Of a stretch of DNA of 64,000 nucleotides, positions 3,565 through 54,928 are shown in pieces (position 1 is the stretch's first letter; every line of letters begins with the position of its first letter). The notes beneath the pieces were generated by a model that was not told where the DNA came from, did not search any database, and saw only the letters and a program-made list of their open reading frames with translations. The position numbers were made by a program, and so were the translations under genes. Source of the DNA: a virus; the IMG/VR virus record IMGVR_UViG_3300003663_000013. The stretch is one strand, 5' to 3'.

Positions 3565-3570
3565 CCTTGT

Positions 3571-5475: not shown

Positions 5476-5491
5476 GATATAAATTAGAATA

Positions 5492-5933: not shown

Positions 5934-5956
5934 AAGCCGCTAAAAACACCTGAATT

Positions 5957-6127: not shown

Positions 6128-6239
6128 TGCGCGGGCTTTTTTCTTTTTTGGTCAAGTTGCACCGACCTATCATTTAAAAACTGTCGCAGCACTTGTTTGT
6201 AACTACTATATATCAAATTATCAATTTAATTTATTGATT

Positions 6240-6559
6240 ATGAATAAATTTGCAGAGTCAACTTTAAGAAAATATGAAAAATATCTTAAAGTTAAAAATT
6301 ACTCAGATAGAACTATTGATTTAATGGTCAAAATTCTTTACAATATAGCACTACAAGTTGTAATAAATTAGTCAAAAAATATCTTGGAGAACAATATCAT
6401 TTCCATTTACTTAGACACGCTGCATTTACTCATTTAACAGATCAAGGAGTAGATATTAGAGCAATTCAAAAACTTGCTGGACATAAATCAAGTAGGACTA
6501 CTGAAATCTATACTCAAGTAAGTACACAAGTTTTACATAAATTACCCTTGGCACTATAG
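6240..6559 (+). pseudogene. tyrosine recombinase (integrase) remnant with internal deletion and frame change
   Basis: The N-terminal fragment (6240-6371) encodes a SAM-like domain start, ESTLRKYEKYLKVKNYSDRTI. A second frame (6320-6559) encodes the C-terminal catalytic region HLLRHAAFTHLTDQGVDIRAIQKLAGHKSSRTTEIYTQ. The roughly 200-aa core between them is missing. Confidence 0.75.
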
Positions 6560-9332: not shown

Positions 9333-9963
9333 ATATAATAACAGATTTATAGCTTTAGATTGTGAAACTGGGGGATTACCTAAAAGTGGTAAAATGGCAA
9401 CAGTTGATATTTCTTTGACGGAAGTAGCTCTTGTTACAATCGAAAATGAAAAATTAGAGATAATATCACAAGACAGTTGGTTAATAGCTCCCTATGATGA
9501 TAATTTAATATATGATAAAGGGGCAGAGAGGGTTTCTGGTATAAGTAAAGAAATGTGTAAAAAAGAAGGATTGCCAATTGAAGAAGTATATCAAAATATA
9601 TTAGGAGTATTAAAAGACAACAAATTAGGAAAGAACAAACCTATCTTAATAATGCAAAATAAGTCTTTTGATACTCCTTTTATTGAAAACTTATTTCAAA
9701 TATTTGGAGATGATTTATGGAAACACATAGAAAGGGTGGAAGATACTTTGCATTGGGCTAGATACCGATGGATAGAAAAACCAAAATTTAACTTAGGTTC
9801 TATAGCAGAATATTGTGAATTAGATTTAGTCCAAGCACACAGGGCATTACAAGATACACTTATAACTGCAAAAATATGGATTAACTTCATGAAAAGCCTT
9901 AGAGGAGAAAATCAATTAACACAAAAAGAAGAAGTAAAATTTAGAGAAAAATTTAAATTTTAA
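9325..9963 (+). CDS. DnaQ-like DEDDh 3'-5' exonuclease
   Basis: ExoI motif ALDCETGGL and ExoIII motif HRALQDTLITAKIW. Confidence 0.75.
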   Translation: MAKYNNRFIALDCETGGLPKSGKMATVDISLTEVALVTIENEKLEIISQDSWLIAPYDDNLIYDKGAERVSGISKEMCKKEGLPIEEVYQNILGVLKDNKLGKNKPILIMQNKSFDTPFIENLFQIFGDDLWKHIERVEDTLHWARYRWIEKPKFNLGSIAEYCELDLVQAHRALQDTLITAKIWINFMKSLRGENQLTQKEEVKFREKFKF

Positions 9964-12900: not shown

Positions 12901-12986
12901 ACGATGACGGTCCAATGAGTGCGTGGTTAGGAATAAAATGTATAAGTGCAAGTAAAGATAAAGATGTTAATTTTGTAATGATGTAA
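9963..12986 (+). CDS. terL: terminase large subunit, interrupted by an intein
   Basis: Walker A-like ASRGLGKS, Walker B DWIIIDDYGD and a C-terminal nuclease-type region. The exteins join as INIVG|TPFQESD. Confidence 0.8.
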   Translation: MIEKLDKGGSPHTIEQLNWVYEQFENVIDMLDDKSLKEISSGSQFDVDSLVQIIEEETLNIFTGIPEPINASKFYNLTNVTANIHETLKVLNYNYFKLTMMPGFYISPLSIEWGNIIQIYDRTCVLASRGLGKSFEYSLALPIWKMYGYRRPSEFNPVSLDIARRREGLLVTNKYKLGQKLLGKIATEIKENDALHERLKPERKDEGTLGRERIETKNGCELNLRSADSTARGLHPDWIIIDDYGDNNWIYSQEQRDKAIETFYGDIMKTIERGGTINIVGCVSMDSTIITRDGLRKIGNLCPVENYKEKGLYEYEIEVLGKNGWNKTSHYWCNGLTKTKKITLKGGYELECSLIHPLWKMNENGCPDWCESKNLKVGDWIAVKDGYDFDGEKIDLTEFYSNYNVTYKHKNIKIHNSVDRDLAYLLGLYVADGSFEDTGRITIAKSIEGIRKFLLEYGFVKGQDIKLRYNSKYLIDLMQYLGFTKATAISKHIPEKIFKADKETLKWFLQGMFDGDGGCYVDKDSSIQINYSSISKQLIYDLHNILMAFGIFSSIKERPPGISERVRGKHNLYRINIAGYDSRLFLEKIGFRFSGKSDKVTEDLLSSIRSKNSSYRRIPHQKDLIKKVRKEKPRRKSGEVSTLPPFHSQEVVSPNISRESLKIVSDWFVENGAKGEFTDQLVKNGNENLVYLPITKIEDSENYTVDFHIPNKHNFITNGIVSHNTPFQESDLYAYIRENDKTFKYFEYPAVMPDGTIVAPHRWNMEELEKEYETNGPLIFSREILVVPISDGSTIFPWDILEKSFIGMQDYRLVTNRDSFPIKFKFVSVGCDFAISGNIENADATVFSVWGVDDYENYWLLHIWRKQGASHNEQIGKLKEIERNFRPDEIVAESNGFQKVMLSIGREHGIKNITDFNTTGWNKKDLYEGLPSLAILFHQGRMRMPRGDVQSKEMTDWLCSEFNSITIKPDSGKLESAGQHDDGPMSAWLGIKCISASKDKDVNFVMM
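10806..12134 (+). mobile_element. intein with LAGLIDADG homing-endonuclease domain (443 aa) in TerL
   Basis: Starts with Cys (CVSMDS) and ends VSHN, followed by Thr +1. Contains LAGLIDADG blocks LAYLLGLYVADGSF and LKWFLQGMFDGDGG. Confidence 0.85.
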
Positions 12987-12999
12987 AATCGGTAAATAT

Positions 13000-14382
13000 A
13001 TGAGTAAAATAAGCTTAGAATTTTTACGAGAACTTTTCCTTCTTTGTTTCTACAAAAAAGACGTAGTTGAAGTAGTGAGTCAACATTTAAAATATCAATT
13101 TATACCAGACGAATACAATCAATATAAAAAGATATTAAGGAGTATAGTGACTATATACAAGAATGAAGACAAACTTCCCACCTTTGGAATAGTGAGCCAA
13201 CAGCATCAACAAGACTTAAAAGTTCAAGAAACAGTAACAAAAATAAAAGAAACGAAGTTTCCTGATAAGGAAATAATTTTAAATGAATTAGAATCGTTTT
13301 TAAAAAGAAGTCAATTTCTATCTTTAAACAATAAACTTGCTACTTTATATGAACAAGGAAAAGAAGAAGATGCAATATTACTACAAGCAAAAGAGAGTGA
13401 ACAAATAGTAAACTTCTCTATTAAACAAGCAGGATTATATTATAGTAGAGTATTTCAGGACTTCGATAAGCGTATGGAACAGCGTTTAGTAAAACAAGAA
13501 TCAGGAGAGTATAAAAAAGATAAAGTTCCATTTGGTATAGAACCATTGGATATAATTACACACGGTGGAATAGATGTTACAGACACAGTATTGTGGATAT
13601 TACGTTCAGGCGTAGGTAAGTCAACAGCTTTAAAATGGGTTGGTGTTAATGCAGCACGTAAACATAGAAATGTACTACATATTCAATTAGAGGGTTCTCA
13701 AGAAGAATGTGAAATAAAGTATGATCAAGTATGGACTGCAACCTATTATAATGATATAAGATATGGCAATATAGATGATAAGAAATATGATAAACTACAA
13801 CAGATAGTTAATTATATGAAGTCTCACAATAATGATATATTCATACATGCATTTGAACAATTCAATACAGCAAGTATGGTAGATGTGAGAAATTTATTTG
13901 CTGATATAGAAAAGAAACAAGGACACATAGATTTAGTTATTATTGACTATTTAAAGTATTTAGATCCTGGAGATGGATTAAAGTATGGAGTAGATACTCA
14001 AAGTGTTAAAATGAGGAAAGAAAATACTTCAGATAGAATAAAGAATATGGCTAAAGAATTTGGAACACGTATAATGATAGCAGACCAAGCCAGCGATGTT
14101 CCTATTGATATTTGGAATGATCCTAATAAAGTTTTAACAAGACATAATATTGCAGGAGCTAAAAACTTACTGGATTCATATAGTTACGGATTTACAGGTA
14201 ATCAAACCATAGATGAACAAAAGGCTAATTTAATGCGTATTCACATTGAAAAATTTAGAAACTACAAACTCCCTAACAAACCTATTAAAATAGCAACAAA
14301 CTATGATTTAGGTAGGTTCTATGATCATTCAAGAACTAAGAAATTGTATTATAATAATGAAGAAGGTAAATACATATTTTAA
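13000..14382 (+). CDS. DnaB-like replicative helicase (RecA-fold ATPase)
   Basis: Walker A LRSGVGKST and Walker B LVIIDYL. Sits next to the primase gene. Confidence 0.6.
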   Translation: MSKISLEFLRELFLLCFYKKDVVEVVSQHLKYQFIPDEYNQYKKILRSIVTIYKNEDKLPTFGIVSQQHQQDLKVQETVTKIKETKFPDKEIILNELESFLKRSQFLSLNNKLATLYEQGKEEDAILLQAKESEQIVNFSIKQAGLYYSRVFQDFDKRMEQRLVKQESGEYKKDKVPFGIEPLDIITHGGIDVTDTVLWILRSGVGKSTALKWVGVNAARKHRNVLHIQLEGSQEECEIKYDQVWTATYYNDIRYGNIDDKKYDKLQQIVNYMKSHNNDIFIHAFEQFNTASMVDVRNLFADIEKKQGHIDLVIIDYLKYLDPGDGLKYGVDTQSVKMRKENTSDRIKNMAKEFGTRIMIADQASDVPIDIWNDPNKVLTRHNIAGAKNLLDSYSYGFTGNQTIDEQKANLMRIHIEKFRNYKLPNKPIKIATNYDLGRFYDHSRTKKLYYNNEEGKYIF

Positions 14383-22744: not shown

Positions 22745-24370
22745 ATGAAAAAAGCAGTAGTAGTATTTTCAGGAGGTCAGGACTCTACAACCTGTCTAGG
22801 ATGGGCTTTAAAAAATTTTGATGAAGTTGAAGCGATAACATTTAATTATGGACAAAAGCATTCAATAGAATTAGAGCAAGCTAAATCTATTTGTGAGAAA
22901 CATGGTGTAAATCAGACTTTAATAGATATTTCGTTTTTAAATACATTGGTTGATTCTGCTTTAACAAGCAACGGAGATGTTAATAAGACACATCCGAGAT
23001 TAAAATATCTCCCTGCAAGTTTTGTTCCTAATAGGAATGCATTGTTTTTAACTTTAGCTCATGCTTATGCACAAAAAATTGGAGCAGAGACTTTAGTGAC
23101 GGGCGTGTGTGAAACTGATTATTGTGTGACGGGAGATACGTTGATAGATTGTCCAAGAGATTTATCTATTTATCCTCAAGGTATCCCTATAAAGGAATTG
23201 GTAGGGAAAGAGTTTTTAACATGGTCATGGGATGTACAGAAGCAAAAAACAGTTTTAAAAAGAGCGTTTAATGTAAGAAAAACTTATGATGAAACAGATA
23301 TATATGAAGTTAAATATACTTGGGGAGTGGGTAAGAGTAAGAGGTTTGGCTCAGTAAAAGCTACATCGGATCATAGATTTCTACTTACATCTGGTAAATA
23401 TGTTAAATTGAAAGATTTAAAGAACGGAGATTCATTACAAACCTTTCATTCGACCTATGATAAAAAATATAGATTAATAACATCTGAACCCACCAAAGTG
23501 CAATATGAACATAAGTTAATCGTTTCTTTATTAAACAATATAAATATAGCATCAGATTGGGTTTCTCATCACAAAGATCATAATCCATATAATAATAATG
23601 TTGATAATTTACAGAAAATGGATTTTTCTATACATATGTCTCATCACACTAAACAAAGCTGGGAAAGTGGATTGCTTAAAGTAAACAATACTTTTATCAA
23701 TAACAATCCCATGAATTATAAAAAATATAGAGATAAAGTCTCTCAAAAAAAGAAAGAGTGGTGGGATAATTTATTACAAGAAGATAGACAGAGAATGTCT
23801 AATAAATCAAGTGTTAGTATGAAAAAAAGAATGGAATCAAATGATTATATAAATCCATCTAACCTACCAGGTGTTAAATTTAAGCAGAGATATGCTAGAT
23901 ACAAGTATTATAATAATAGAGATGGAATGGAAATGGTTAAGAAAGAAGCTGAAATAGCTGGATTTAGTGTAAATCATAAAGTAGTTTCTATTGAATATAT
24001 TGGTCGAGATTCAGCATACGATATGGAGGTAGAAGATACACATAATTTCGTAGCTAACGATATTTTTATTCATAACAGCGGATACCCTGATTGTAGAAAT
24101 ATATTTATTGAGTCATTACAAGAATCTTTACATTTAGCTTCAGATGTTTTAATAAAAATTGAAACACCTTTAATGTACTTAGATAAGGCAGATACATTTA
24201 AGATGGCTGATGATATAGGTATTTTAAATGACGTTATTAATTTATCTCACACTTGTTATAATGGAGATCACAAGACTAAGAATGAATGGGGATATGGATG
24301 TGGTGAGTGTCCTGCTTGTCAAGTTAGAAAAAGGGGCTATGAAGAGTATTTAAATAGATATAAAAAATAA
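22745..24370 (+). CDS. queC: 7-cyano-7-deazaguanine synthase (QueC), interrupted by an intein
   Basis: PP-loop VVFSGGQDST. The exteins join as GVCETDY|SGYPDCR, the canonical QueC motif. C-terminal Zn motif CGECPAC. Confidence 0.85.
   Translation: MKKAVVVFSGGQDSTTCLGWALKNFDEVEAITFNYGQKHSIELEQAKSICEKHGVNQTLIDISFLNTLVDSALTSNGDVNKTHPRLKYLPASFVPNRNALFLTLAHAYAQKIGAETLVTGVCETDYCVTGDTLIDCPRDLSIYPQGIPIKELVGKEFLTWSWDVQKQKTVLKRAFNVRKTYDETDIYEVKYTWGVGKSKRFGSVKATSDHRFLLTSGKYVKLKDLKNGDSLQTFHSTYDKKYRLITSEPTKVQYEHKLIVSLLNNINIASDWVSHHKDHNPYNNNVDNLQKMDFSIHMSHHTKQSWESGLLKVNNTFINNNPMNYKKYRDKVSQKKKEWWDNLLQEDRQRMSNKSSVSMKKRMESNDYINPSNLPGVKFKQRYARYKYYNNRDGMEMVKKEAEIAGFSVNHKVVSIEYIGRDSAYDMEVEDTHNFVANDIFIHNSGYPDCRNIFIESLQESLHLASDVLIKIETPLMYLDKADTFKMADDIGILNDVINLSHTCYNGDHKTKNEWGYGCGECPACQVRKRGYEEYLNRYKK
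23123..24076 (+). mobile_element. intein (318 aa) with HNH-type endonuclease insert in QueC
   Basis: Starts with Cys (CVTGDTLID) and ends FIHN, followed by Ser +1. The internal segment SHHKDHNPYNNNVDNLQKMDFSIHMSHH looks HNH-like. No LAGLIDADG blocks were seen. Confidence 0.8.
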
Positions 24371-28644: not shown

Positions 28645-29970
28645 ATGAGCAGTACATTAGACAAAATCAGAGAAATGCGCCAAAGTGCGAAACAAGAAGA
28701 AGTAAAATACTTCAGTTCAAAAAGTTCAGGTAAAAACCTAAGACCAAGTGACCTTGATGAAGGAAAGAATTATTTTAGAATTGCACCAAGTCATGATCCT
28801 GAAAAGAATCCAAGTCCTTTCTATCCTTTTAGAAGTACATACTTAGAGGTAGAATTAGGAATTGATGATTTAAGTTCATGGAACATTGACAAATTAATTG
28901 GTGAGAAATCACTAATGAAACAACTTGGTATTGAAAAGCTTAGTGAATTGTCTGAAATGGACGATGACAAGGTAAAAGCTAAGTTAAAATCAATTTTAGG
29001 AGACGATTTTAAGTATAAAGTAACTAAGAGATTATTTATTTCAACTCTACATGGTAAAGAAGGAGATCAAGACTTAGTAGAGGAATACATTAAGTTCGTA
29101 GTGAAGAAAATAAATGATGAGGTTGGAGACAGAGATGAAGCAAGAAAACAACTTTCTCCTATTTTTGGATGGAGAGATAAGAGTGGTAAGTGGAATCCAG
29201 GAATAACACCAAGTACTTCTTATGTATTTTATGCTTGGGATTGGAAATCTTCAGACAAAAACTTTTTTAAAATCGAAATCTATGATAAAATGATGGATAA
29301 GATTGAAGAATTGTATGTTAAATTTGATGATCCAGACCAACCTCTTACAGTAGATCCATTTAGCCACCCGACTGAAGGCATAGGAATTATTATTGATAAA
29401 AATAAGAACGAAAAAGGTAAGTGGGATTTTGTTATTTCAGATGTTCCTATGACACGTAGTTTTAAGAATTATGCTGAATTTGCAAAGTATTTTGAATTAG
29501 GTGAAGCACAATTAAAACAACTTGAAGAAGCCAAACCACTTGCAGAACAATTTGGAAGAGGTGTTTTCAAACGTTCAGATTTTGAATTACAATTGAATGG
29601 ATTAGTTCTATTTGATGAAAAATATGGGTTTAATGCTTTTGAAAATGATGATTTCTTAGAAACAGTTGAACAGATTTCTAATCAATTTGAAGAAGAACAA
29701 ACACCACACAATCCACTTACAGGTGAAGGTAAAGCTCCAGAGAAGAAAAAAGAGAAAGTTGAAGAAACTGAAACAGCAGAAGAAGACGAAGAAAGCAGTG
29801 GAGATAAATCTTTTGACGAATTAATGGATAGTAAACCAGGAAAATTAAGAAGTGAAGAGAAGCCAAAGACAGAAGTTCCTGACGGTTCTATTAAAGAAAA
29901 TAAATCAACTAAATCACCTGATTTAGAAGATAAATTAGCTAAGTTGCGTAAGAATTTATCTAAGAAATAA
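28645..29970 (+). CDS. hypothetical protein, possible ssDNA-binding protein (acidic C-terminal tail)
   Basis: 441 aa with a long E/D/K-rich C-terminus, located in the replication module. The functional call is weak. Confidence 0.5.
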   Translation: MSSTLDKIREMRQSAKQEEVKYFSSKSSGKNLRPSDLDEGKNYFRIAPSHDPEKNPSPFYPFRSTYLEVELGIDDLSSWNIDKLIGEKSLMKQLGIEKLSELSEMDDDKVKAKLKSILGDDFKYKVTKRLFISTLHGKEGDQDLVEEYIKFVVKKINDEVGDRDEARKQLSPIFGWRDKSGKWNPGITPSTSYVFYAWDWKSSDKNFFKIEIYDKMMDKIEELYVKFDDPDQPLTVDPFSHPTEGIGIIIDKNKNEKGKWDFVISDVPMTRSFKNYAEFAKYFELGEAQLKQLEEAKPLAEQFGRGVFKRSDFELQLNGLVLFDEKYGFNAFENDDFLETVEQISNQFEEEQTPHNPLTGEGKAPEKKKEKVEETETAEEDEESSGDKSFDELMDSKPGKLRSEEKPKTEVPDGSIKENKSTKSPDLEDKLAKLRKNLSKK

Positions 29971-29980
29971 TTAACTTACT

Positions 29981-30019
29981 GAGAGTGGTTAATCTACCAC
30001 TCTCTTTAATCTTTTTTTT
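29981..30019 (+). terminator. rho-independent terminator
   Basis: Perfect 8-bp stem GAGAGTGG / CCACTCTC with an 8-nt loop, followed by a T-rich tract. Confidence 0.7.
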
Positions 30020-30022
30020 AAA

Positions 30023-30160
30023 ATGTTAAGTATAGGAGAATTTTTAGAATTATATCCTGAATTAGATCAGTATGATCGTAGGATAAAAGAATTAGCATAT
30101 GAATGTTATATCGAAGACATGGATTTTGATATAGATGAATTTATAAAAAGTATAAGTTAG
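30023..30160 (+). CDS. small acidic hypothetical protein
   Basis: 45-aa ORF (translated by eye) that ends immediately before the ATG at 30161. Confidence 0.35.
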   Translation: MLSIGEFLELYPELDQYDRRIKELAYECYIEDMDFDIDEFIKSIS

Positions 30161-31219
30161 ATGAAAAAACCATTAGTATTATTTTCTACTGATTGGCATA
30201 TAAAGCCCAATAATACAGAACAAATAATAGACTTAGTAAAGCAAAAAATAAAAGTAGCTTTAGATAACTCTATTAAAACATTAATTGTATTAGGAGATAT
30301 ATTTCAATCACGTCAAGCACAACCACTTATTGTTTTAAAGTGTTTTGAAAAGATATTAGATTTAGTTCATGAAGCAGAATTAGAACTATGGTGCATATCT
30401 GGAAATCATGACAAGACTGATTATACAAGTCAAGATTCATTCTTAGATCAATTTCAGTGGCATCCTGCTTTAAAACTTATTAGAGTATTTGAAGTAGAGC
30501 AAATAGGAGACTGGTTATTTTATTTTCTTCCTTATTTTGAAACAGAAATATGGAAAGAAATGATTGTTTCTTTTGAAAAATTAGGGATTAAATCAGATAA
30601 GAAAATATTGTGTTCTCATCAAGCCATTAATGGTTCTGTAAATAATGATGGAAGTAAAGTAAACAATGGAATAGAACCAAACGCATTAGATGAGTTTTAT
30701 AAAGTGTTTTTAGGGCATTATCACAATCAACAGAAGATAAGTGGTCATATTTATCATTTACCTTCTATTCAATCAAATAACTTTGGAGAAGATAATGAAA
30801 AGGGTTTCACTATTTTATATGACGATGGAAGTCACGAATTAATACAAAGTGAATTTAAACAATATTACACTATTGATATTGATTTAGATAAATTAAACAA
30901 AGACGAATTAAACGGTATTAAGAAGGATGCTAATGAATTAATAAAAGAAGCGGGAGCGAATATAAGATTTAAATTTAAAGGCTCAGAAGACAAGATAAAA
31001 GCCATTAAACAAGAAGAATTTACAGCATTAGGAATAGATGTTAAAAAAGAACATAAATCAGTAACAGATTCTATTGAAAAAGCAGTAACAGGAGAAGTAA
31101 TGGTTTATAACAATGATATTATTATAAAGAAATTTGAAGAGTTTTGTATAGAAGAAGAATATGATAATGTTGAATACGGTAAGAGTTGTTTAATTAAAAA
31201 GTTAAAAGAAAATGAATAA
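30161..31219 (+). CDS. SbcD/Mre11-type nuclease (metallophosphoesterase)
   Basis: Motifs STDWH, LGDIFQSR, SGNHD and GHYH. Lies two genes upstream of the SbcC-like ATPase, with recA between them. Confidence 0.75.
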   Translation: MKKPLVLFSTDWHIKPNNTEQIIDLVKQKIKVALDNSIKTLIVLGDIFQSRQAQPLIVLKCFEKILDLVHEAELELWCISGNHDKTDYTSQDSFLDQFQWHPALKLIRVFEVEQIGDWLFYFLPYFETEIWKEMIVSFEKLGIKSDKKILCSHQAINGSVNNDGSKVNNGIEPNALDEFYKVFLGHYHNQQKISGHIYHLPSIQSNNFGEDNEKGFTILYDDGSHELIQSEFKQYYTIDIDLDKLNKDELNGIKKDANELIKEAGANIRFKFKGSEDKIKAIKQEEFTALGIDVKKEHKSVTDSIEKAVTGEVMVYNNDIIIKKFEEFCIEEEYDNVEYGKSCLIKKLKENE

Positions 31220-32192
31220 AGAAGGAATACAAAGTGTTTTAGATAATATAGATAAAAAATTTGGTGAAGGAACTATTTCACGTAAACTAATAGATGTCCC
31301 AAGAGTAAGTAGTGGGTGTTTAAGTTTAGACTTAGCATTGGGCGGTGGTTATCCTAATGGTAGAATAATAGAAATAATGGGTTGGGAATCAAGTGGCAAG
31401 TCGACCTTAGCACTACATCTTGCAGCAGAAGTTCAGAAATTAGGTAAAAGAGTTGGTTATATAGATACAGAACATTCTTTAGATTTATTCTATGCTTCTC
31501 AATTAGGAGTAAATGTAGATATTGAATCAACAGACCCTAAATTTGTTATGTCACAACCTGATAATGGTGAACAAGCAATGGAAGTGGCTCGTGCTTTTAT
31601 TAATAGTGGAGAATTCGGATTAGTGGTAATAGATAGTGTTTCTGGATTGGTTCCTAAAGCATTATTACAGGGTGATGTTGGAGATGTAAAGATGGCAACA
31701 ATAGCACGTTTGATGTCTCAATGGGTTCCTGCTTTGACTTCTCCTGCTAATAAAACAAATTGTATAGTGTTGTTTATTTCTCAATATAGAGAAAAAATTG
31801 GAGTTATGTTTGGCTCCCCCATTACTACAACAGGTGGTAATGCTTTGAAGTTTTATGCTTCTCAAAGATTGGAAATTTCAAGAATAGGTCAAAACAAAAA
31901 TGGTGATGAAATATTGAGCAATAAATCACGTGTAAAAGTTATTAAAAATAAAGTATCTCCACCATTTCGTAAAGCGGAATTTGATATTGAATTTGGTACA
32001 GGTATTAACACTATTGGAGATGTATTAGACTTAGCTGTTGAATTAGATATTGTTAAAAAAGCTGGTAGTTGGTATAGTTATGAAGAAACTAAATTAGGAC
32101 AAGGAAGACAATCAGTTATAGAATTATTAAAAGACAATCCTGAAATTGTTCAGGAAGTAGAAGAAAAAGTTAGAAAAGAATTAAATTTATAG
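31212..32192 (+). CDS. recA: RecA recombinase
   Basis: Near-collinear with bacterial RecA: KKFGEGTISR, SSGCLSLDLALGGGYPNGRIIEIMGWESSGKSTLALH, and L1/L2-like regions. Confidence 0.85.
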   Translation: MNKEGIQSVLDNIDKKFGEGTISRKLIDVPRVSSGCLSLDLALGGGYPNGRIIEIMGWESSGKSTLALHLAAEVQKLGKRVGYIDTEHSLDLFYASQLGVNVDIESTDPKFVMSQPDNGEQAMEVARAFINSGEFGLVVIDSVSGLVPKALLQGDVGDVKMATIARLMSQWVPALTSPANKTNCIVLFISQYREKIGVMFGSPITTTGGNALKFYASQRLEISRIGQNKNGDEILSNKSRVKVIKNKVSPPFRKAEFDIEFGTGINTIGDVLDLAVELDIVKKAGSWYSYEETKLGQGRQSVIELLKDNPEIVQEVEEKVRKELNL

Positions 32193-32195
32193 TCT

Positions 32196-34196
32196 ATGTG
32201 GCAGCCTAGAGAACTTATTTTAGAGAATTTTCGGTCGTTTAAAGAACAAACCTTTGAGTTTAAGAAAGGTGCTTTTTTAATTCAAGGTATTAATAATACA
32301 GATGACGGTTCTGAATCGAACGGTTCAGGTAAATCTTCTTTACGTGAGGCACTTTGCTTTGTATTGGGATTACCAACTTTTAGTGACACTAATACGGATC
32401 TTATTAATAATAATGCTGATAAATGTAAGGTAGAATTTCACTTATTTAATTCTTTAACAAAAGATGATTTATTGATTATAAGAGAATTACCACTTAAAGG
32501 TAGTTCTATGGTTACTATAATATTAAATGGAATAGATCAAAAAGATCAATTTGCAACAGTAAGAGATGGTGATAAATTAATTATTGACTTAATTGGTATT
32601 AGTAAAGAAGATTTATTAAATCATTATATTGTAAGTAAAGAAAAGTTTACCTCTTTCTTTTCTTCTTCTGATACTAAAATTAAAGAACTTATTAGTAGAT
32701 TTAGTAATTTTAATAAGTTTGATGGTGTTGAAGATATTGTTCAAATAGATATTGATTTTTTAAATGAAGAACTAAAAATATTAAATGATGGATTACAAAA
32801 ATATGAAGGTAAAATTGAATATTTAAAAGAAGAGTTAATAAAAGAGAAGGAAAAGGATGTAGAAGAGGAAATAAGTAGTCAAATATCGAAGATTAATGGC
32901 GAGATAAGTAATTATATTAAATCAATTGAAGATGCGAGAGAAACTATTCAAAACAAGAAAAATAAGATATTTGAATTAAAAGGTAGAATTCCTATTCATG
33001 AAGCTAAAAAAGAAACCTTAGAGAAAGAACTTAAATCATTACAAGAAATTAAGTTTGACGATGAGATTAAGCAAATAGAAAAAAAGAAGGAAAAAGCAGT
33101 AGAACAGAAAGATATTATCAATCAAGAGATTTATAGTATAGAAACTCAATTAAAAGAGTTTAATAAATTTAAGATTGAGATTGAAACAGCAATTGAAGGT
33201 TCTATTCAGTGCCCTAAATGTTTTCATGAGTTTATTCCCAATAATGAAATTTCTATTGAAGAAGCTAAAAAGACTTTGCCCACTGTTTTAAAAGAAATCG
33301 AAGAATTTAACACTAATATTAAAAATAATTCAAGTAAAATTAGTAAAATTCAAGAGATTTTATCTAAATTGAATGAGAATTTAAGTAGTTATGAACAGAA
33401 AATCAGTGATTTTAACAAACACAAGAATAATTTATTAAATAAAATAGATGATTGTGATACTGAAATTTATAATATAAGTCGATCTATAAGCAATATTACT
33501 GGTGAAATCTCTTCTATTGAAGATAGGATTGTTCATTATAACAAAATGATTGAACAAAAGAAACAATCTATTGAAGAAATAAAGAAGCAAGAAGTTAAGA
33601 CCAAAGAAGAAGAAATCAATAAATCAATAGACAGTCTCATTGAAGAAAAATCTAAACATGAATTAAAGATTGAAGAAAAGAAAGATCAAATATTTGAAAA
33701 AGAACAGTGGGTCTTTAGATTTAAGAAATTTCGCAGTAAATTAGCGAATGAATCTTTAGATATTATACAAGGGTATGCTAATATGTATTTAGAGAACATG
33801 AAAACCAACTTAAATGTTAAAATAGAAGGATTTAGACAAAATAGAGATGGTTCTATACGTGAAAAGATTAATCCTATTGTTTTAAGAAATGGTATTCAGG
33901 AGGGTTCTGGTAACTTTAAAAAATACAGTGGAGGAGAGAGAGGAAAGATTGATATTGCAACCAGTGTATTAGCTGTTCAAACTCTTATTAATAATTCTTG
34001 TCATACAGGAGGATTGAATCTTACTTTTATAGATGAAGTATTAGAATCAGTAGACTCTCAAGGATTAGAAAGTATTGTAGAGAGTGTTGATAACCCTAAT
34101 ACTCATTTTATGGTTATTTCTCACGTAAGACATGATAAAGTTCATAATAATGTAATAACGGTTGAAAAAACTAATAATGTAAGTAAAATAATATAA
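32196..34196 (+). CDS. SbcC/Rad50-type ATPase
   Basis: Walker A NGSGKSS, a long coiled coil with a CPKC hook, signature YSGGERG and Walker B LTFIDEV. Confidence 0.75.
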   Translation: MWQPRELILENFRSFKEQTFEFKKGAFLIQGINNTDDGSESNGSGKSSLREALCFVLGLPTFSDTNTDLINNNADKCKVEFHLFNSLTKDDLLIIRELPLKGSSMVTIILNGIDQKDQFATVRDGDKLIIDLIGISKEDLLNHYIVSKEKFTSFFSSSDTKIKELISRFSNFNKFDGVEDIVQIDIDFLNEELKILNDGLQKYEGKIEYLKEELIKEKEKDVEEEISSQISKINGEISNYIKSIEDARETIQNKKNKIFELKGRIPIHEAKKETLEKELKSLQEIKFDDEIKQIEKKKEKAVEQKDIINQEIYSIETQLKEFNKFKIEIETAIEGSIQCPKCFHEFIPNNEISIEEAKKTLPTVLKEIEEFNTNIKNNSSKISKIQEILSKLNENLSSYEQKISDFNKHKNNLLNKIDDCDTEIYNISRSISNITGEISSIEDRIVHYNKMIEQKKQSIEEIKKQEVKTKEEEINKSIDSLIEEKSKHELKIEEKKDQIFEKEQWVFRFKKFRSKLANESLDIIQGYANMYLENMKTNLNVKIEGFRQNRDGSIREKINPIVLRNGIQEGSGNFKKYSGGERGKIDIATSVLAVQTLINNSCHTGGLNLTFIDEVLESVDSQGLESIVESVDNPNTHFMVISHVRHDKVHNNVITVEKTNNVSKII

Positions 34197-36070: not shown

Positions 36071-36688
36071 ATGAGTACAATTAAAATTAAAAGTAAATTT
36101 CATTGGTTACTTGATAATGGTCATGGAGGAATAATTAATGGTGAATATCAGACAGCAGGTAAACGTTCTCCTATCTATGATGGTAAACAAATATTTGAAG
36201 GCGTTTATAATCGTGAAATTGTTCAAATGGTATATAAATACCTTAAAGGGAATAATATTGATTCTACTATTTTAGTTCCTGAACAAGAAGATGTTTCTTT
36301 AAAAGAAAGAGTTGTAAGAACTAATAAAATATATAAAGAAAAAAGCAATACTATTTTAGTTTCCTTCCATCTTAATGCAGGAGGTGGTACTGGATTTGAA
36401 GTTTATACTTCTAAAGGAGAAACCTTTAGTGATAAAATTGCCACTATGTTTATTAATTATTGGGAACAAAATACTAATTTTAAAATACGCAAAGATTATT
36501 CTGATGATGATCCTGATAAAGAAGCCGACTTTTATATTTTAAAATACACCTATTGTCCTGCTATTTTGGTTGAAAGTTTATTTATGGATAATAAAAATGA
36601 CTTTGATTATTTAATTTCTGAAGAAGGAAAACGTAAAATTGCAGAAAACCATATAAATTCTATTATAAATTGTGAAAAATATTTGTAA
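36071..36688 (+). CDS. N-acetylmuramoyl-L-alanine amidase (Amidase_3-type endolysin)
   Basis: Motifs LLDNGHGG, SFHLNAGGGTGFEVY and ILVESLFMDN. Confidence 0.75.
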   Translation: MSTIKIKSKFHWLLDNGHGGIINGEYQTAGKRSPIYDGKQIFEGVYNREIVQMVYKYLKGNNIDSTILVPEQEDVSLKERVVRTNKIYKEKSNTILVSFHLNAGGGTGFEVYTSKGETFSDKIATMFINYWEQNTNFKIRKDYSDDDPDKEADFYILKYTYCPAILVESLFMDNKNDFDYLISEEGKRKIAENHINSIINCEKYL

Positions 36689-36725
36689 AAATATGTAATT
36701 TTTTCTTATTCATTATCAACACTTT

Positions 36726-36757
36726 AAAGGAACATTGTAAAATTTGTTCCTTTTTTT
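36726..36757 (+). terminator. rho-independent terminator
   Basis: 9-bp stem AAAGGAACA / TGTTCCTTT followed by a T-run. Duplicated at 38468-38499. Confidence 0.7.
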
Positions 36758-36768
36758 ATGTAAAAAGT

Positions 36769-36799
36769 TTTGTATTTAAAAATATAGTTTATATATTTA
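36769..36799 (+). promoter_or_regulatory. Bacteroidetes-type promoter
   Basis: TTTG at 36769-36772 and TATATTTA at 36792-36799 with a 19-nt spacer. Confidence 0.5.
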
Positions 36800-36849
36800 T
36801 ATCGTTAAACAAAACAAAAAACACATTATTAACTAAAAAACTAAAAGTC

Positions 36850-38216: not shown

Positions 38217-38417
38217 ATGAAAACTTTAATCAATACAATAACAGAACAAACTCAAGAATTAAAGATTAAATTTTTAGAACAAACTGAAGAATGGACTAAA
38301 AAGGAAATTGAAAGATTAATTAATGTCTCAGAAAAATATAAAACTTCAAAACATTATAGTGAAGAGAATGGTTATATTAGTGAAAGAAAAGCATATAAAT
38401 TCTATTATGAATTGTGA
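38217..38417 (+). CDS. hypothetical protein
   Basis: 66-aa ORF. Its 3' end enters the duplicated 133-bp block. Confidence 0.45.
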   Translation: MKTLINTITEQTQELKIKFLEQTEEWTKKEIERLINVSEKYKTSKHYSEENGYISERKAYKFYYEL

Positions 38418-38467
38418 AAAATATCTATAAAAATATGTAATTTTTTCTCATTCATTATCAACACTTT

Positions 38468-38499
38468 AAAGGAACATTTTAAAATTTGTTCCTTTTTTT
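38468..38499 (+). terminator. rho-independent terminator (duplicate of 36726-36757)
   Basis: Same AAAGGAACA / TGTTCCTTT stem plus a T-run. Confidence 0.7.
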
Positions 38500-38510
38500 A
38501 TGTAAAAAGT

Positions 38511-38541
38511 TTTGTATTTAAAAATATAGTTTATATATTTA
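38511..38541 (+). promoter_or_regulatory. Bacteroidetes-type promoter (duplicate of 36769-36799)
   Basis: TTTG at 38511-38514 and TATATTTA at 38534-38541 with a 19-nt spacer. Confidence 0.5.
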
Positions 38542-38574
38542 TGCCATCAAACAAACACAAAAAAACATACTATT

Positions 38575-52050: not shown

Positions 52051-52311
52051 ATGTCAGTAAGAGAATTAGAAAGCTTATTAAAGCAATCAGTAAGTATGTT
52101 AAGTGATATGAATTATATAATCACTATTGTAAACAACGAACCCATTATCCAAACTTATTTTGATTTAAGTGAAGGTCAACATTTCATAGATTATGATGAA
52201 AGTAATGATTTATATGTTGTTAATAGAAGAGTTGGAGATGGTGTTGGAGATAAGATAAGATTTGAGACAATAAAAGAAGCATTGAAGAGATTAGAGAAAT
52301 TAAACAAGTAA
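52051..52311 (+). CDS. hypothetical protein
   Basis: 86-aa ORF followed 5 nt later by GGCTAAC (52316-52322). Confidence 0.5.
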   Translation: MSVRELESLLKQSVSMLSDMNYIITIVNNEPIIQTYFDLSEGQHFIDYDESNDLYVVNRRVGDGVGDKIRFETIKEALKRLEKLNK

Positions 52312-52392
52312 ATGTGGCTAACGTTAAGGCATATAAACGCCATGCAACCGAATTATAATTAAAAAAGAATAATAATTAAATATTTTTGAGCG

Positions 52393-52623
52393 ATGGCAAA
52401 TACAAATGATTACGGAGGACAAGGATTAAATAGAGGTAGTTCTTTTCATATAAAAAAGCCACTTGGTGAAGGTGTGGTTTGGGGTGCGAAGGCTAAAAAA
52501 TGGCTTGTACGAATAAAAAAGAATGGAATAATATGCACAATGGGAGGATACACAGATAAGCAAATAGCAGAAAGACAATATGCCATTTGTGTGGTGGGTA
52601 AATGCACTACAACGGTACGGTAA
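52393..52623 (+). CDS. AP2-domain DNA-binding protein
   Basis: GVVWGAKAKKWLVRIKKNGIICTMGGYTDKQIAERQY fits the AP2/integrase DNA-binding domain pattern. Confidence 0.55.
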   Translation: MANTNDYGGQGLNRGSSFHIKKPLGEGVVWGAKAKKWLVRIKKNGIICTMGGYTDKQIAERQYAICVVGKCTTTVR

Positions 52624-52660
52624 TATGATTAGTTGCCATACTACGAACTTTGAAATTTAG

Positions 52661-52700
52661 TAATAACTTGACAGGCAATTAATTATATTGCTTGTTGTAA
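52661..52700 (+). repeat. attC-like site, short type
   Basis: Layout is TAATAAC, a 6-nt spacer, the stem GGCAAT / ATTGCT, then GTTGTAA (52694-52700). Confidence 0.4.
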
Positions 52701-52734
52701 AATCGTTAAATTATTATGGCAAAAAAAAGAAAAA

Positions 52735-52956
52735 ATGTTTATAGGAGATGATTGCCCAAATTGTGGATGTGGTTTAATTGTAACCACTACATGTGGGGAG
52801 GAAAATGATACAGAATTTGAACAATACTATTATGATGGTGATGAAGTTAGATGCGAAAACAATTGTGGATTTTTATCTACAGTGAGTATAAATGAAGATG
52901 GTGCATGTGCTTATATAGCAGATGGCAACTTAGATGAATTGGAGGAGTGCGAATAA
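52735..52956 (+). CDS. Cys-rich acidic small protein (cassette ORF)
   Basis: 73-aa ORF with CPNCGC...C...C...C. Confidence 0.5.
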   Translation: MFIGDDCPNCGCGLIVTTTCGEENDTEFEQYYYDGDEVRCENNCGFLSTVSINEDGACAYIADGNLDELEECE

Positions 52957-52965
52957 TTTTATGTT

Positions 52966-53098
52966 TTACAACGTATGGTGGTATGGTGTTGTAGCGGATT
53001 AGAAAGCACGAACATATCGAACTGTACGGAAGTAAATAGAAAGTAATGAACTTTGAATTAAACACAAAACCCGCTATGCATTATACCACGTGTTATCG
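52966..53098 (+). repeat. attC-like site (133 bp)
   Basis: TTACAAC (52966-52972) is the complement of GTTGTAA at 52694. A 5-nt spacer follows, then a 19-bp stem (52978-52997 with 53071-53089, one bulge), then GTTATCG (53092-53098). Confidence 0.55.
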
Positions 53099-53248
53099 GC
53101 TGATGTGGTTTAATTGCCTGAATTTCAATACGAACCACAAAACAGTTTTTATTTTTTTAGGGTAGGAAGAAAAATAATTGAAAAATGTTTTGGTTGTTTG
53201 AAACAAAAGTATTGCCTTTGACGTATAAATTAATAAAACGAATGAATT

Positions 53249-53692
53249 ATGAAAACATTTAAACTTCCATTTAGCGAAACCGAAATTGATGTAAATAACG
53301 AAGGTGTTATTACAAGAGTAAACGGATTTGACTTTATTTGTAACATTCTTGAAATGAAATTGTCTGAATATAGGTTGATGGACTTAGACAATAAAGGTTC
53401 ACATATGTTCCCATATTGGTTAGATATGTTCATTCAAGAAATAGGAACATCACTACCTGAAAATAATGATGATTTTGAAAAAATTGTTAGAACAAATTGG
53501 GAACAATGGAATACCGATGATGTTTTAATTGGTACTCAATTAGACCATTATCAATTTGGTGATGAACACATGGCACATGATATGAAAGATTATTATGGTG
53601 AATTACGTGCTAATGGTGATTTATTTCAAAGGAGATGGGATTTTGCTATTGCAGATATTGAAGTAAGAATTAAAAGTGAGCAATATGTCTAA
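53249..53692 (+). CDS. hypothetical protein
   Basis: 147-aa ORF with balanced composition. Confidence 0.55.
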   Translation: MKTFKLPFSETEIDVNNEGVITRVNGFDFICNILEMKLSEYRLMDLDNKGSHMFPYWLDMFIQEIGTSLPENNDDFEKIVRTNWEQWNTDDVLIGTQLDHYQFGDEHMAHDMKDYYGELRANGDLFQRRWDFAIADIEVRIKSEQYV

Positions 53693-53840
53693 GCGAATAT
53701 CACTAAAACTGACTGACGAGAATGATTGGTTGGTTGATAAACTAAACGAAGAAAAAGAAAAACAAAATAGACCAAGTTTTAATAATATGGCAGAGACTAT
53801 TTTGGTTGAGTATTTTGAAGAGCGTGGGCAAAAACAATGA
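53685..53840 (+). CDS. ribbon-helix-helix (CopG/Arc-like) DNA-binding protein
   Basis: 51-aa ORF (translated by eye). MSKRISLKLTDENDWLVDKL...NMAETILVEYF fits a beta-strand plus two helices. Confidence 0.45.
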   Translation: MSKRISLKLTDENDWLVDKLNEEKEKQNRPSFNNMAETILVEYFEERGQKQ

Positions 53841-54145
53841 TTATGATACTTAGTTTTGAAATTACAATGCCTAATGTCGGTAGCTGGAATGGCAAATGGA
53901 CTGGTGCTGAAAACCTTCACTTTGCTTTTAGAAATATGTCTAAAAAAGAAGTTGAAACTTTTATGGAAGGTAAGGAGCATAAGAATTTTTACTACAACTT
54001 TGGCGATGGTTGGGGAGCAAACGTTAAAGTAAAACCAATAGATGCCAAAACAAAAAATAAGATTCAGCGTAAAAATTCTGGATTTATGGGCTATGATTGG
54101 ATGATTGATAGCATATTTGAACACGGAAAGATTATTGTTGAGTGA
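53837..54145 (+). CDS. hypothetical protein flanked by 15-bp direct repeats
   Basis: 102-aa ORF. GAGCGTGGGCAAAAA occurs at 53820-53834 and again at 54144-54158. Confidence 0.55.
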   Translation: MIMILSFEITMPNVGSWNGKWTGAENLHFAFRNMSKKEVETFMEGKEHKNFYYNFGDGWGANVKVKPIDAKTKNKIQRKNSGFMGYDWMIDSIFEHGKIIVE

Positions 54146-54168
54146 GCGTGGGCAAAAAGTTCATACGA

Positions 54169-54202
54169 GCTACAGCGCATTATTTATATAATGAGTTGTA
54201 GC
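54169..54202 (+). repeat. attC-like site, minimal hairpin
   Basis: GCTACAGC, 18 nt, then GTTGTAGC, giving an 8-bp stem with one G-T pair. Confidence 0.4.
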
Positions 54203-54216
54203 ATCGTTTAAATGTG

Positions 54217-54339
54217 CTACAACGTTAAGTATATGGCAAGTAGCCGAACACGAATGATGAACAAAGATATAAATATTAATAACCAGCAGATAGTTTCTAA
54301 AACGCCTAACACGGCTATTTGCTATATACATTGTTAGGC
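54217..54339 (+). repeat. attC-like site (123 bp), ORF-less cassette, homologue of 2604-2726
   Basis: CTACAAC (54217-54223) is the complement of GTTGTAG at 54195. A 5-nt spacer follows, then an 18-bp stem (54229-54246 with 54312-54329), ATT, then GTTAGGC (54333-54339). Confidence 0.6.
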
Positions 54340-54349
54340 ACAGTTAATT

Positions 54350-54556
54350 ATGGCTTATACAAAAAATTACACAGAAAAATTTAAAGTTGGTGACAAAGTT
54401 AAGTTAACCAAGAAAGTTGATTCAATGGCTGGATATTTCCCAAAAGGGGATATAGTTGAAATATGTGATATTGACGACACGAGAGGATACGGTTTTAAAG
54501 ACGAACATGGTAACAGAGTGATAGAATGTGGATGGGATTGCTGCACTTCTATTTAA
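54350..54556 (+). CDS. hypothetical cassette protein
   Basis: 68-aa ORF bracketed by GTTAGGCACA (54333-54342) and TGTGCCTAAC (54558-54567). Confidence 0.5.
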   Translation: MAYTKNYTEKFKVGDKVKLTKKVDSMAGYFPKGDIVEICDIDDTRGYGFKDEHGNRVIECGWDCCTSI

Positions 54557-54560
54557 TTGT

Positions 54561-54577
54561 GCCTAACTACTATATAT
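54561..54577 (+). repeat. terminal inverse-core plus junction GCCTAAC-TACTATATAT
   Basis: Same junction as TTGTAAC-TACTATATAT at 6197-6213. Followed by a roughly 45-nt relic of the recombinase gene start (ATG at 54600, TCAACTTTAAGAA at 54622-54634). Confidence 0.5.
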
Positions 54578-54655
54578 AAGTAAGTAAGTATAAATTCTTA
54601 TGTATTAATGCTTTACAAGTATCAACTTTAAGAATTTGGAATAAAAATAATAAAA

Positions 54656-54928
54656 ATGGCACAAGAAATAGATTTATTCAAACTCTCTCTACTAAGTGAT
54701 ATGATAAATATGGAATTACATAATATTCCTATTAAAAGAATATTGGATCCAGAATTGAAATGTAAGTTAAAAAATTTAAAAAAGAGTACAGATGTATTAG
54801 TTCCAAAATGGGATGAGATGTTTAAAGGTAAAAAAGAAGATACTGAAGAATTTGGTAAGATATCAGACAATATCAATACTTCTATTGATAATTATTTAAA
54901 AGAATTAAGAGAAGATGATACTAATTAA
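54656..54928 (+). CDS. hypothetical protein
   Basis: 90-aa ORF. Confidence 0.45.
   Translation: MAQEIDLFKLSLLSDMINMELHNIPIKRILDPELKCKLKNLKKSTDVLVPKWDEMFKGKKEDTEEFGKISDNINTSIDNYLKELREDDTN

Follow-up and report, generated by a model that had tools for sequence, protein, structure and literature searches.

The window analysed here, one strand of 64,000 nt from the viral record IMGVR_UViG_3300003663_000013, carries on its + strand two arrays of small genes and long hairpin-forming sites, array I at positions 1929–6213 and array II, the subject of this analysis, at 52318–54580 (Table 1). The window belongs to a marine-type phage genome, and its phage origin is evident from genes for ribonucleotide reductase and for two intein-containing proteins, a terminase and QueC, the latter being closest to QueC of Cellulophaga phages. 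No close relative of the window is present among GenBank phages, in which megablast and blastn searches found no match to array II, and array I shared only a 40-bp identity with Nonlabens phage P12024L. A search of viral contigs for relatives of the gene flanking array II (54656–54928) found none.

An earlier note on this DNA had described array II as a second integron-like array built from the same sites as array I, and our analysis supports this description, since the variable part of a GTTxxxx box matches the xxxxAAC box at the other end of the unit. All six 7-mers on which the proposal relied are present where they had been reported (GTTGTAA 52694 and TTACAAC 52966, GTTGTAG 54195 and CTACAAC 54217, GTTAGGC 54333 and GCCTAAC 54561), and the sites 54217–54339 and 2604–2726, each 123 nt long, are indeed homologous, 102 of the 134 columns of their alignment being identical. 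The reported break in the chain after GTTATCG (53092–53098) was also found: no CGATAAC lies nearby, and the only copies in the window are at 22833, 34498, and 37629. The full site 52607–52700, the orphan half-site 54175–54201, the terminal motif TACTATATATAAG at 54568–54580, and the recombinase relic at 6240–6559 had been overlooked. Array II had further been called a G+C-richer island; its G+C content of 0.328 does exceed the window mean of 0.292 and ranks among the 16 highest of 309 equally sized windows, but the rise is mild, and the part 53171–53836 is at the background level (0.299).

On the + strand the sites share a common plan consisting of xxxxAAC, 5–6 nt, a stem of 16–19 bp with the arms L'' and L', 2–3 nt, and GTTxxxx. 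A covariance model (R1) was built from an alignment (A2) comprising 20 sites taken from the window, from contigs of viruses and metagenomes, and from phage P12002L; a first MAFFT alignment (A1) misaligned short hairpins and was left out of the model. Applied to the whole window with filters off, R1 gave 11 matches with an E value below 0.002; every one of them lies on the + strand and within an array, eight in 1929–5349 and three in 52607–54339. Seven of the 11 were not seeds of the model, and the next best match, outside the arrays, had a score of 16 bits. A permissive hairpin scan was discarded, its 371 matches against about 270 in shuffles being at the noise level, while a stricter scan worked.

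The stem is well supported by covariation. In A2, 90% of the cells of the 18-bp stem are paired, compared to 28–50% with the partner slid by 1–3 columns; changes on both sides occur at 12 of the 18 pairs, and none of 500 shuffles attained the observed score. Two G·T (U) wobbles are fixed in the stem, in 18 of 19 and 16 of 19 sequences, respectively, with the G always in the 5' arm. They turn into C·A mismatches on the opposite strand, and the + strand forms the stem while the − strand does not. The contents of the hairpin loop vary, being short, or including the start of the next gene (2967–3097, 3244–3375) or a whole gene (2290–2579), and some sites of the family, with a gene in the loop, reach 190–290 nt. 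The array II sites have the imperfect inverted repeats (R''-L''...L'-R'), the AAC and GTT triplets, and the size (about 57–141 nt) of attC sites. Beyond AAC and GTT, however, their fit to RYYYAAC/GTTRRRY is regular only at the fourth base (R), and neither extrahelical bases nor a short L box were found: the stems are continuous over 16–19 bp and have the two conserved G·T wobbles instead. A one-base bulge was read from the sequence in a few sites, at 52966 and 5252.

R1 matches in the window and 34 other loci comprised 76 distinct sites and 51 distinct adjacent junctions. In 36 of these junctions (71%) all four variable bases of GTTxxxx find their complements in the next xxxxAAC, as against 4.1% of random pairs (binomial P = 2e-38), whereas the two boxes within a single site are complementary in just 2 of the 76 sites. 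Therefore, the stretch GTTxxxx...xxxxAAC travels as one piece; its cargo may be one gene, several genes (3634–5021), or just 20–30 nt. Perfect complementarity was found at seven of the eight junctions of array I, including the last unit, GTTACAA ... TTGTAAC, and at three of the four testable junctions of array II (P = 2.7e-4 relative to random pairs).

Cassettes of both arrays occur elsewhere in other contexts. Three blocks of array I are present in the viral contig L004 with 98.6–100% identity, in the order B, C, A as compared to A, B, C in the window, and the C/A junction has the overlap CTAACG. The last cassette of array II (the 54217–54339 hairpin, GTTAGGC, gene, and GCCTAAC) is 99.2% identical in the viral contig L041 (L041 1359–1718 corresponding to window 54208–54567), where it stands in another context and the identity ceases right after GCCTAAC. 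A homologue of the gene 52735–52956 (86% amino acid identity) was found in the viral contig L042, in which the upstream hairpin and GTTGTAAAA are kept and the downstream box is degenerate. The contigs L034 and L036, with 100% identical recombinases and identical downstream genes, differ by whole cassettes: relative to L036, L034 contains an additional 1,685 bp, placed exactly between AGATAAC and TATTATATAT, and at three more junctions (ACATAACG|..., ACCTAACG|..., and ATATAACG|...) the parents have only TAAC(G) in common.

A 38-bp unit of array I containing no open reading frame (ORF), 2573–2610, is 100% identical in Nonlabens phage P12024L, four viral contigs, and 23 metagenome contigs, and was found in one of 185,579 bacterial or archaeal genomes; its identity ends at GTTG and CAAC. 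In copies consisting of one upstream gene and this module, unrelated sequences follow directly after CACCACAA(C), and the last base sometimes varies; the variants CACCACAA-A and CACCACAA-T would fit a cut between AA and C. The junction overlaps are 4–6 nt (TAAC, TAACG, CTAACG; TAACG reads CGTTA on the opposite strand), which is too short and too regular for homologous recombination and places the usual crossover within AAC of xxxxAAC. The unit of exchange is thus the hairpin together with GTTxxxx...xxxxAAC, and such a unit, from xxxxAA|C to the next xxxxAA|C, leaves genes that start in a loop intact. The unit proposed in the earlier note, a gene plus its downstream hairpin with a G|TT crossover on the + strand, was ruled out, since the shared blocks are bounded by xxxxAAC and genes begin inside the upstream hairpin.

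An intact tyrosine recombinase gene is located 3' of the arrays, on the same strand, in L004, L006, L030–L037, L039, and L040. The protein has 266–269 amino acids (aa) in eight related contigs, 267 aa in L004, and 273 aa in L006, and contains the Pfam domains Phage_int_SAM_4 and Phage_integrase. Its best NCBIfam families are XerA/"integron integrase", integron integrase, and XerD, in that order, all below the cut-offs. The L004 and L006 recombinases scored 161–179 bits against TIGR02249 (cut-off 265) and 96–114 bits against PRK15417 (cut-off 435), matching in two stretches. When aligned to VchIntIA (2a3v), residues 180–213 of the recombinase stand opposite IntI residues 182–263, so that about 48 residues are missing, and the additional IntI-specific domain used by IntegronFinder is absent from the L004 and L006 proteins. 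Like the archaeal XerA and bacterial XerC/D recombinases, with which it shares its size and two-domain build, the protein aligns end to end with Pyrococcus XerA (4a8e, E 2e-36) and XerD; unlike them, it is phage-encoded beside cassette arrays, and its presumed sites are long hairpins rather than 28-bp dif-like duplex sites. More than 6,700 homologues were detected in metagenomes, the top 120 being 261–284 aa long. Four more of them (P0010, P0041, P0108, and P0049) were inspected, and all lie in phage-like contigs behind arrays of tiny co-directional ORFs; these ORF arrays vary between contigs having an identical recombinase. In L040, a 229-kb phage-like contig, a gene for IS605-type OrfB/TnpB (12472–13626) is located about 4.7 kb downstream of the recombinase; it is absent from the other contexts viewed and is probably unrelated to the array.

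In the recombinase-containing contigs, nearly all R1 sites are on the gene strand and precede the recombinase gene. The arrays of eight contigs, and likewise array I, end in xxxxAAC|TAYTATATATAA, which in the contigs is located 45–60 nt (about 50) before the recombinase ATG; variants of the terminal motif precede this ATG in L030, L032, L034, L036, L037, L039, and L040. The last xxxxAAC before the motif usually matches the preceding GTTxxxx, with a mismatch in L036. The 13-mer AACTACTATATAT, expected as an exact match 0.0085 times per strand, occurs in the window only at 6201 and 54565, and also at L004rc 10791. An attI-like platform is therefore present in the eight contigs and array I, and it is at this junction that the 1,685 bp distinguishing L034 from L036 are located; array II has the motif only, with no recombinase gene after it. 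By the family's own site model, array II consists of three full sites and a half-site, and the sole recombinase match in the window, at 6311–6523, belongs to a relic that begins about 40 nt past the attI-like motif of array I; an internal deletion with a change of frame has left about 28 residues of its N-terminus and 80 of its C-terminus. The distant homologue in L006, 40% identical to the L004 protein, is not preceded by the terminal motif. L006 is an Ignavibacteriales metagenome-assembled genome (CAVPHW010000001, 259–1226) and the only bacterial-genome match of the 38-bp module, which is located there about 85 nt upstream of the recombinase; ordinary chromosomal genes follow directly after the recombinase, and the locus is cut off upstream of the module.

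Read as the reverse complement, the system takes on the geometry of a canonical integron: the recombinase gene is divergent from the array and is followed by the attI-like site and then by cassettes of the form TTxxxx, body, xxxxAAC, hairpin, G, with the crossover at G|TT and the better-folding strand corresponding to the canonical "bottom" strand. Integron cassette logic, namely complementary cores at the unit ends and a G|TT crossover, was found with one exception at the other box. The cassette genes are antisense to the canonical orientation, running toward the recombinase gene and co-directional with it, and hence are neither co-oriented with the attC top strand nor placed to be read from a promoter (Pc) at the integrase end. 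In one L034 cassette the gene is on the opposite strand and the sites still have the array orientation, which argues that the sites serve the DNA array and not the mRNA of each gene.

These data make it quite likely that array II is a recombinase-less mobile gene cassette array belonging to a phage-borne, integron-like system of site-specific recombination, whose carriers are probably Bacteroidota phages, although for its mechanism we infer from comparison. This reading is strengthened by the 99–100% identical cassettes found elsewhere, the breakpoints in TAAC(G), the recombinase beside the arrays of relatives, and the relic beside array I. Independent support comes from Polaribacter phage P12002L, in which HattCI predicted a member of the family as an attC and IntI1 recombined the array's terminal junction at G|TTAGGC (PMC9892861). 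The recombinase would excise cassettes as circles and insert them at the terminal site; its substrate would be the folded + strand, which the G·T wobbles would make the foldable one, and the cut would fall within AA|C of xxxxAAC. On the reverse complement this would be the canonical integron reaction (G|TT, bottom strand) with the cassette genes in antisense. We infer that the exchanges are catalysed by the array-adjacent recombinase and that the cargo benefits the phage.

The first box of array II, at 52318, is preceded by an AT-rich backbone gene (52051–52311) and followed by only a degenerate half hairpin, in which the covariance model detects no full site. The start codon of the gene 52393–52623 lies within the family motif TTTTTGAGCGATGGCAAA (52388), and its last codons overlap CTACAAC of the next site, whose stem forms on the + and not on the − strand. 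The interrupting segment 53099–53836 comprises a small hairpin followed by a T run (about 53105–53165) and the genes 53249–53692 (147 aa) and 53676–53840 (54 aa), for which no functions were found via Pfam and PHROGs. For the half-site 54175–54201, no matching 5' arm (TTATATGAATAGTGCGC-like) was found anywhere in the window. Its intact version is present in L028 (5' arm 582–598, 3' arm 906–922), where the 15-bp family motif likewise stands before the gene of the homologous cassette and the BLAST match to the window spans 54148–54223. Since the L028 cassette is intact, the 5' half was most likely lost from the window by rearrangement; it was probably replaced by the segment 53099–53836, and the break 53098–54169 is best explained as a truncated cassette with its 5' half replaced. 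The 15-bp direct repeats reported to flank an inserted gene in this interval do exist, as GAGCGTGGGCAAAAA at 53820 and 54144, but the comparison with L028 shows them to be a recurrent family motif and no target-site duplication. The short unit 54195–54223, with the loop motif CGTTT(T/A)AATG, is the counterpart of the 38-bp module 2573–2610 of array I, and related modules are present in L028 and L032. The stem of the site 54217–54339 has 18 pairs, including two G·T.

Table 1. Features of array II and related features of the window (R1, covariance model of the site family; L', L'', stem arms).
Feature	Position	Strand	Evidence or remark
Array I, eight sites	1929–2059, 2290–2579, 2604–2726, 2967–3097, 3244–3375, 3571–3640, 5015–5109, 5252–5349	+	R1
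Array I end TTGTAAC|TACTATATAT	6197–6213	+	attI-like motif
Tyrosine recombinase relic	6240–6559	+	tblastn with L006 recombinase; frames compared with intact 267-aa L004 protein
First xxxxAAC box, GGCTAAC	52318–52324	+	Distal (left) boundary; G+C rise begins here
Cassette gene, 76 aa	52393–52623	+	ORF list; no Pfam or PHROG match
Hairpin recombination site (attC-like), 94 nt: CTACAAC, ggtac, L'' GGTAATATGATTAGTTGCC ... L' GGCAATTAATTATATTGC, tt, GTTGTAA	52607–52700	+	R1 65.9 bits, E 1e-11
Cassette gene, 73 aa, Cys-rich	52735–52956	+	Bracketed by GTTGTAA 52694–52700 and TTACAAC 52966–52972
Hairpin recombination site, 133 nt, TTACAAC ... GTTATCG	52966–53098	+	R1 40.4 bits, E 4e-6; no model seed
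Interrupting segment	53099–53836	+	Backbone-level G+C (0.299) from 53171; no family sites (covariance model)
GAGCGTGGGCAAAAA, copy 1	53820–53834	+	Family motif GAGCGTGGGCAAA 5' of cassette start codon; variant at 52388
Cassette gene, 102 aa	53837–54145	+	ORF list; L028 counterpart gene inside loop of intact hairpin
GAGCGTGGGCAAAAA, copy 2	54144–54158	+	Motif scan
Orphan 3' half-site: L' GCGCATTATTTATATAA, tga, GTTGTAG	54175–54201	+	Partner-arm search
Short ORF-less unit: GTTGTAGCA, tcgtttaaatg, TGCTACAAC	54195–54223	+	9-bp stem, fold z = -4.0
Hairpin recombination site, 123 nt: CTACAAC, gttaa, GTATATGGCAAGTAGCCG ... CGGCTATTTGCTATATAC, att, GTTAGGC	54217–54339	+	R1 78.1 bits, E 2e-14
Cassette gene, 68 aa, PHROG 26571 (function unknown)	54350–54556	+	Bracketed by GTTAGGC and GCCTAAC
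Terminal junction GCCTAAC|TACTATATATAAG	54561–54580	+	Last xxxxAAC box, complementary to GTTAGGC 54333; attI-like motif adjoins

Pfam and PHROGs searches assigned no function to the cassette genes of either array, with the exception of a 3'-phosphoadenosine 5'-phosphosulfate (PAPS) reductase domain in array I. The gene concerned, 4179–4973 (Pfam E 5e-14), is one of two in the largest array I cassette (3634–5021) and may relate to DNA or nucleotide modification, QueC being phage-encoded too. Several short sequences recur around the cassette genes and sites. The + strand motif TTTTTGAGCG(A/T)(T/G)GGCAAA is found 5' of cassette start codons or overlapping them, and at times after the gene, at 52388, 53820, and 54144 of the window, at about 1590 of L001, at 651 of L028, and in L008, L018, and P12002L, with zero matches on the other strand of the window; it possibly signals translation starts or has a regulatory role. 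The smallest hairpins of both kinds, short GTT...AAC units and short L hairpins, have the loop sequence (A/T)CGTTT(T/A)AATG in common (window 2590–2600 and 54204–54214; L012, L028, L030, L032, L034, and P12002L attC1), which suggests a bound factor or a minimal functional loop. In cassettes whose genes start in the loop, translation runs through the 3' arm and the GTT box and yields a common N-terminal peptide, (L)NI(S/A/P)DV(S/M), near residue 20 (window 1993–2059; L034 1898–2032, 6254–6385, and 7336–7467).

Among the alternatives, the one that survives best takes the hairpins as RNA elements acting in processing, stability, or translation control, and the shuffling as a by-product of homologous or microhomology recombination, with no dedicated reaction. 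The precedent is the promoter early stem-loop (PeSL) elements of T4-type phages (Arbiol et al. 2010, PMC2839356; Comeau et al. 2014, PMC4122927), promoter–terminator motifs thought to act via homologous recombination with no dedicated recombinase. The resemblance to PeSL, which belong to hyperplastic genome regions of lytic phages, lies in conserved intergenic stem-loops on either side of small accessory ORFs and in the insertion, deletion, and reordering of ORFs between close relatives. An RNA role would also account for the location of all sites on the transcribed strand, the two conserved wobbles being G·U-compatible on this strand only, the many cassette genes that begin in or sit wholly within a hairpin loop, and the conserved loop and upstream motifs (CGTTTTAATG and TTTTTGAGCGWKGGCAAA), which hint at regulatory signals. 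However, the junction overlaps of just 4–6 nt stand at a constant position with one side unrelated and are too short for homologous recombination, the arrays consistently end in one motif beside a tyrosine recombinase gene, and no obvious RNA role would account for a GTTxxxx that is complementary to the next xxxxAAC a whole gene away; the L034 cassette with its gene on the opposite strand and the site orientation unchanged points in the same direction. No intrinsic terminator-like hairpins were found in array II, and Rfam searches of both arrays (E ≤ 1) found no family, so that a known RNA family was rejected. The arrays analysed here depart from PeSL in that the overlaps always fall at one box, T-run terminators are lacking, and a recombinase gene and a terminal site are present; the early promoter and terminator stem-loop of PeSL were not found, promoter-like matches being at the shuffle level in a scan for the sigma-70 consensus, outside which Bacteroidota-type promoters fall. 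Altogether, we consider the RNA explanation unlikely.

Another explanation takes array II for an ordinary CALIN (cluster of attC sites lacking integron-integrases), a piece of a host chromosomal integron with canonical attC sites moved by a bacterial IntI. The AAC/GTT boxes, imperfect inverted repeats, and cassette logic, all as in integrons, speak for it. Integrons, for example class 1 and the Vibrio cholerae superintegron, are the closest known system overall, with many features in common: head-to-tail, mostly single-gene cassettes; imperfect palindromes bounded by xxxxAAC and GTTxxxx; complementary variable cores at the cassette ends; a G|TT / AA|C crossover; one strand that folds better; and an array that adjoins a distinct site beside a Xer/IntI-clade tyrosine recombinase gene, with insertions and deletions at that site. 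CALINs have been described in virulent phages, their sites being taken for attC of the canonical, bacterial-integron type (Qi et al. 2023, Front Microbiol, PMC9892861); for Polaribacter phage P12002L, the study reported two divergently oriented sites but neither a cognate recombinase nor an attI, and IntI1 recombined one junction, "attC2", at G|TTAGGC (PMC9892861). The other site, P12002L_attC1, was predicted by HattCI only and was the only site that IntI1 failed to recombine (PMC9892861).

We found that P12002L_attC1 (TGCTAACGGCTACGGCTAAACGGTCGTTTTAATGCCGTTTTAGCCATTGTTAGGC) is a clear member of the array II site family and that "attC2" is the terminal junction of the P12002L array read on the other strand. 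R1 and hairpin scans detected four or five family sites on the gene strand of this phage, not two. The published CALIN is part of a longer array on the minus strand (L038, about 29175–32930), with the pairs GTTACCT/AGGTAAC, GTTGTAT/ATACAAC, and GTTAGGC/GCCTAAC; the array includes three DNA methyltransferase genes and, like array II, is not adjacent to a recombinase, none being annotated in the P12002L genome. Nonlabens phage P12024L, with several family sites, is not among the 21 phages named in PMC9892861.

The differences from integrons make a host-derived CALIN very improbable. The phage recombinase, with 266–269 aa, is no IntI, lacking the IntI-specific insertion and falling under both integron-integrase cut-offs of NCBIfam; the stems of 16–19 bp have two conserved G·T wobbles and no extrahelical bases, with spacers of 5–6 and 2–3 nt; and the cassette genes are reversed to antisense, co-directional with the recombinase, and often located in a hairpin loop, with some exchange at the other box. 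That IntI1 left P12002L_attC1 unrecombined also argues against a CALIN. The sites thus differ in structure from canonical attC sites, and the link to host chromosomal integrons suggested in the earlier note found no support: the carriers are phage genomes, and the most conserved module occurs in just one of the 185,579 bacterial and archaeal genomes, from which the family is nearly absent, as compared to four viral and 23 metagenome contigs. The weakest explanation, that the units are small transposons or resemble miniature inverted-repeat transposable elements, with terminal inverted repeats (GTTxxxx...xxxxAAC or the hairpin arms) and a transposase elsewhere, can appeal to genes flanked by inverted repeats, the 100% identity of the 38-bp module in unrelated phages, and the TnpB/IS605 OrfB gene near the L040 array, but is hardly credible given the lack of target-site duplications (the 15-bp repeat being a family motif), units that run strictly head to tail in a single orientation, their arrays being anchored to a recombinase gene, the lack of a consistently co-occurring transposase, and hairpin arms that covary within the hairpin and not with the flanking unit.

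Several points weigh against the interpretation of array II as an integron-like cassette array. Every mechanistic step is drawn from comparative sequence, and the system may be inactive in this phage, the only recombinase copy in the window being a relic and array II having none. The strand of the sites is the transcribed strand, the G·U wobbles and covariation would equally suit an RNA structure, and the sites may have a second, or their sole, role in mRNA; likewise, the terminal motif may simply serve as the recombinase promoter. Taken singly, the sites have weak thermodynamic support, with DNA z-scores from -0.4 to -2.3, and the case for the structure therefore rests on covariation. Complementarity is imperfect at 15 of the 51 junctions, some of which are explained by undetected intervening sites, and seven recombinase contexts were inspected out of more than 6,700 homologues. 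Finally, one block boundary is at GTT and not at AAC, the same gene-loaded hairpin being followed there by differing short units, and the identical 38-bp module stands after many different genes, so that exchange is not limited to one box, unlike in canonical integrons.

Within the window the system looks inactive, in view of the relic recombinase, the absence of any recombinase at array II, and one truncated cassette. Both arrays are probably frozen unless a recombinase is supplied in trans, because the sole recombinase copy found in the window is the deleted relic and array II has none.

Other repeated or inserted elements of the window lie outside the arrays. Inteins are present in the large terminase (9963–12986; Intein_splicing and LAGLIDADG homing endonuclease domains) and in QueC, the 7-cyano-7-deazaguanine synthase (22745–24370; Intein_splicing), whose exteins are 64% identical to the QueC of a Cellulophaga phage. 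A family of AT-rich intergenic repeats (TTTG..AAAATATA(T/G)TTTATATATTTATATTG) is located 5' of backbone genes at 1316–1378, 7981, 16092, 28059, 36767, 38512, 51978, 58581, and 59306; these repeats differ from the array sites, none of them lies inside the arrays, and they are probably the phage's own promoters. An AT-rich region contains a 184-nt direct repeat (36643–36826 and 38385–38568, 92% identical, 1.7 kb apart), near which a 58-nt repeat occurs in three copies, at 36812, 37232, and 37780.

Array II is, in our reading, an integron-like array of a kind related to known ones, and one member of its site family had earlier been predicted as a phage attC (Qi et al. 2023). Beyond that work, the site family is now tied to its own recombinase, a terminal site, a cassette polarity, and a wobble signature; no description of these four was found in the literature, the coverage of which was incomplete, so that an earlier description elsewhere is possible. 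The failure of P12002L_attC1 to recombine with IntI1 may be due to its cognate enzyme being the recombinase of the array family. Since current integron finders require an IntI domain and the canonical attC model, they would probably miss this family.

We are inclined, with less assurance than for array II itself, to regard the system as a distinct phage-borne class of integrons, in which a Xer-type recombinase without the IntI domain would read folded single-stranded hairpins via G·T wobbles and use its own attI-like site, providing a private and fast shuffling of accessory, possibly anti-defence, genes in lytic Bacteroidota phages. The thousands of recombinase homologues in metagenomes suggest that the system is common; it seems to be widespread in phages and little described.

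To our knowledge, integrons have been regarded as bacterial devices defined by one integrase family, with phages reported only as occasional carriers of fragments. In the phage-like contigs analysed here, integron logic is encoded in full, with cassettes, sites that fold, a terminal site for insertion, and a recombinase beside it, yet it is built on another recombinase and another structural signature. If the system works as proposed, cassette capture would have evolved or diversified beyond IntI. The system would also offer new single-strand-specific recombination sites and enzymes for study and tool building, and it would explain in concrete terms how the hypervariable, ORFan-rich regions seen in many phages of marine and fresh waters arise.

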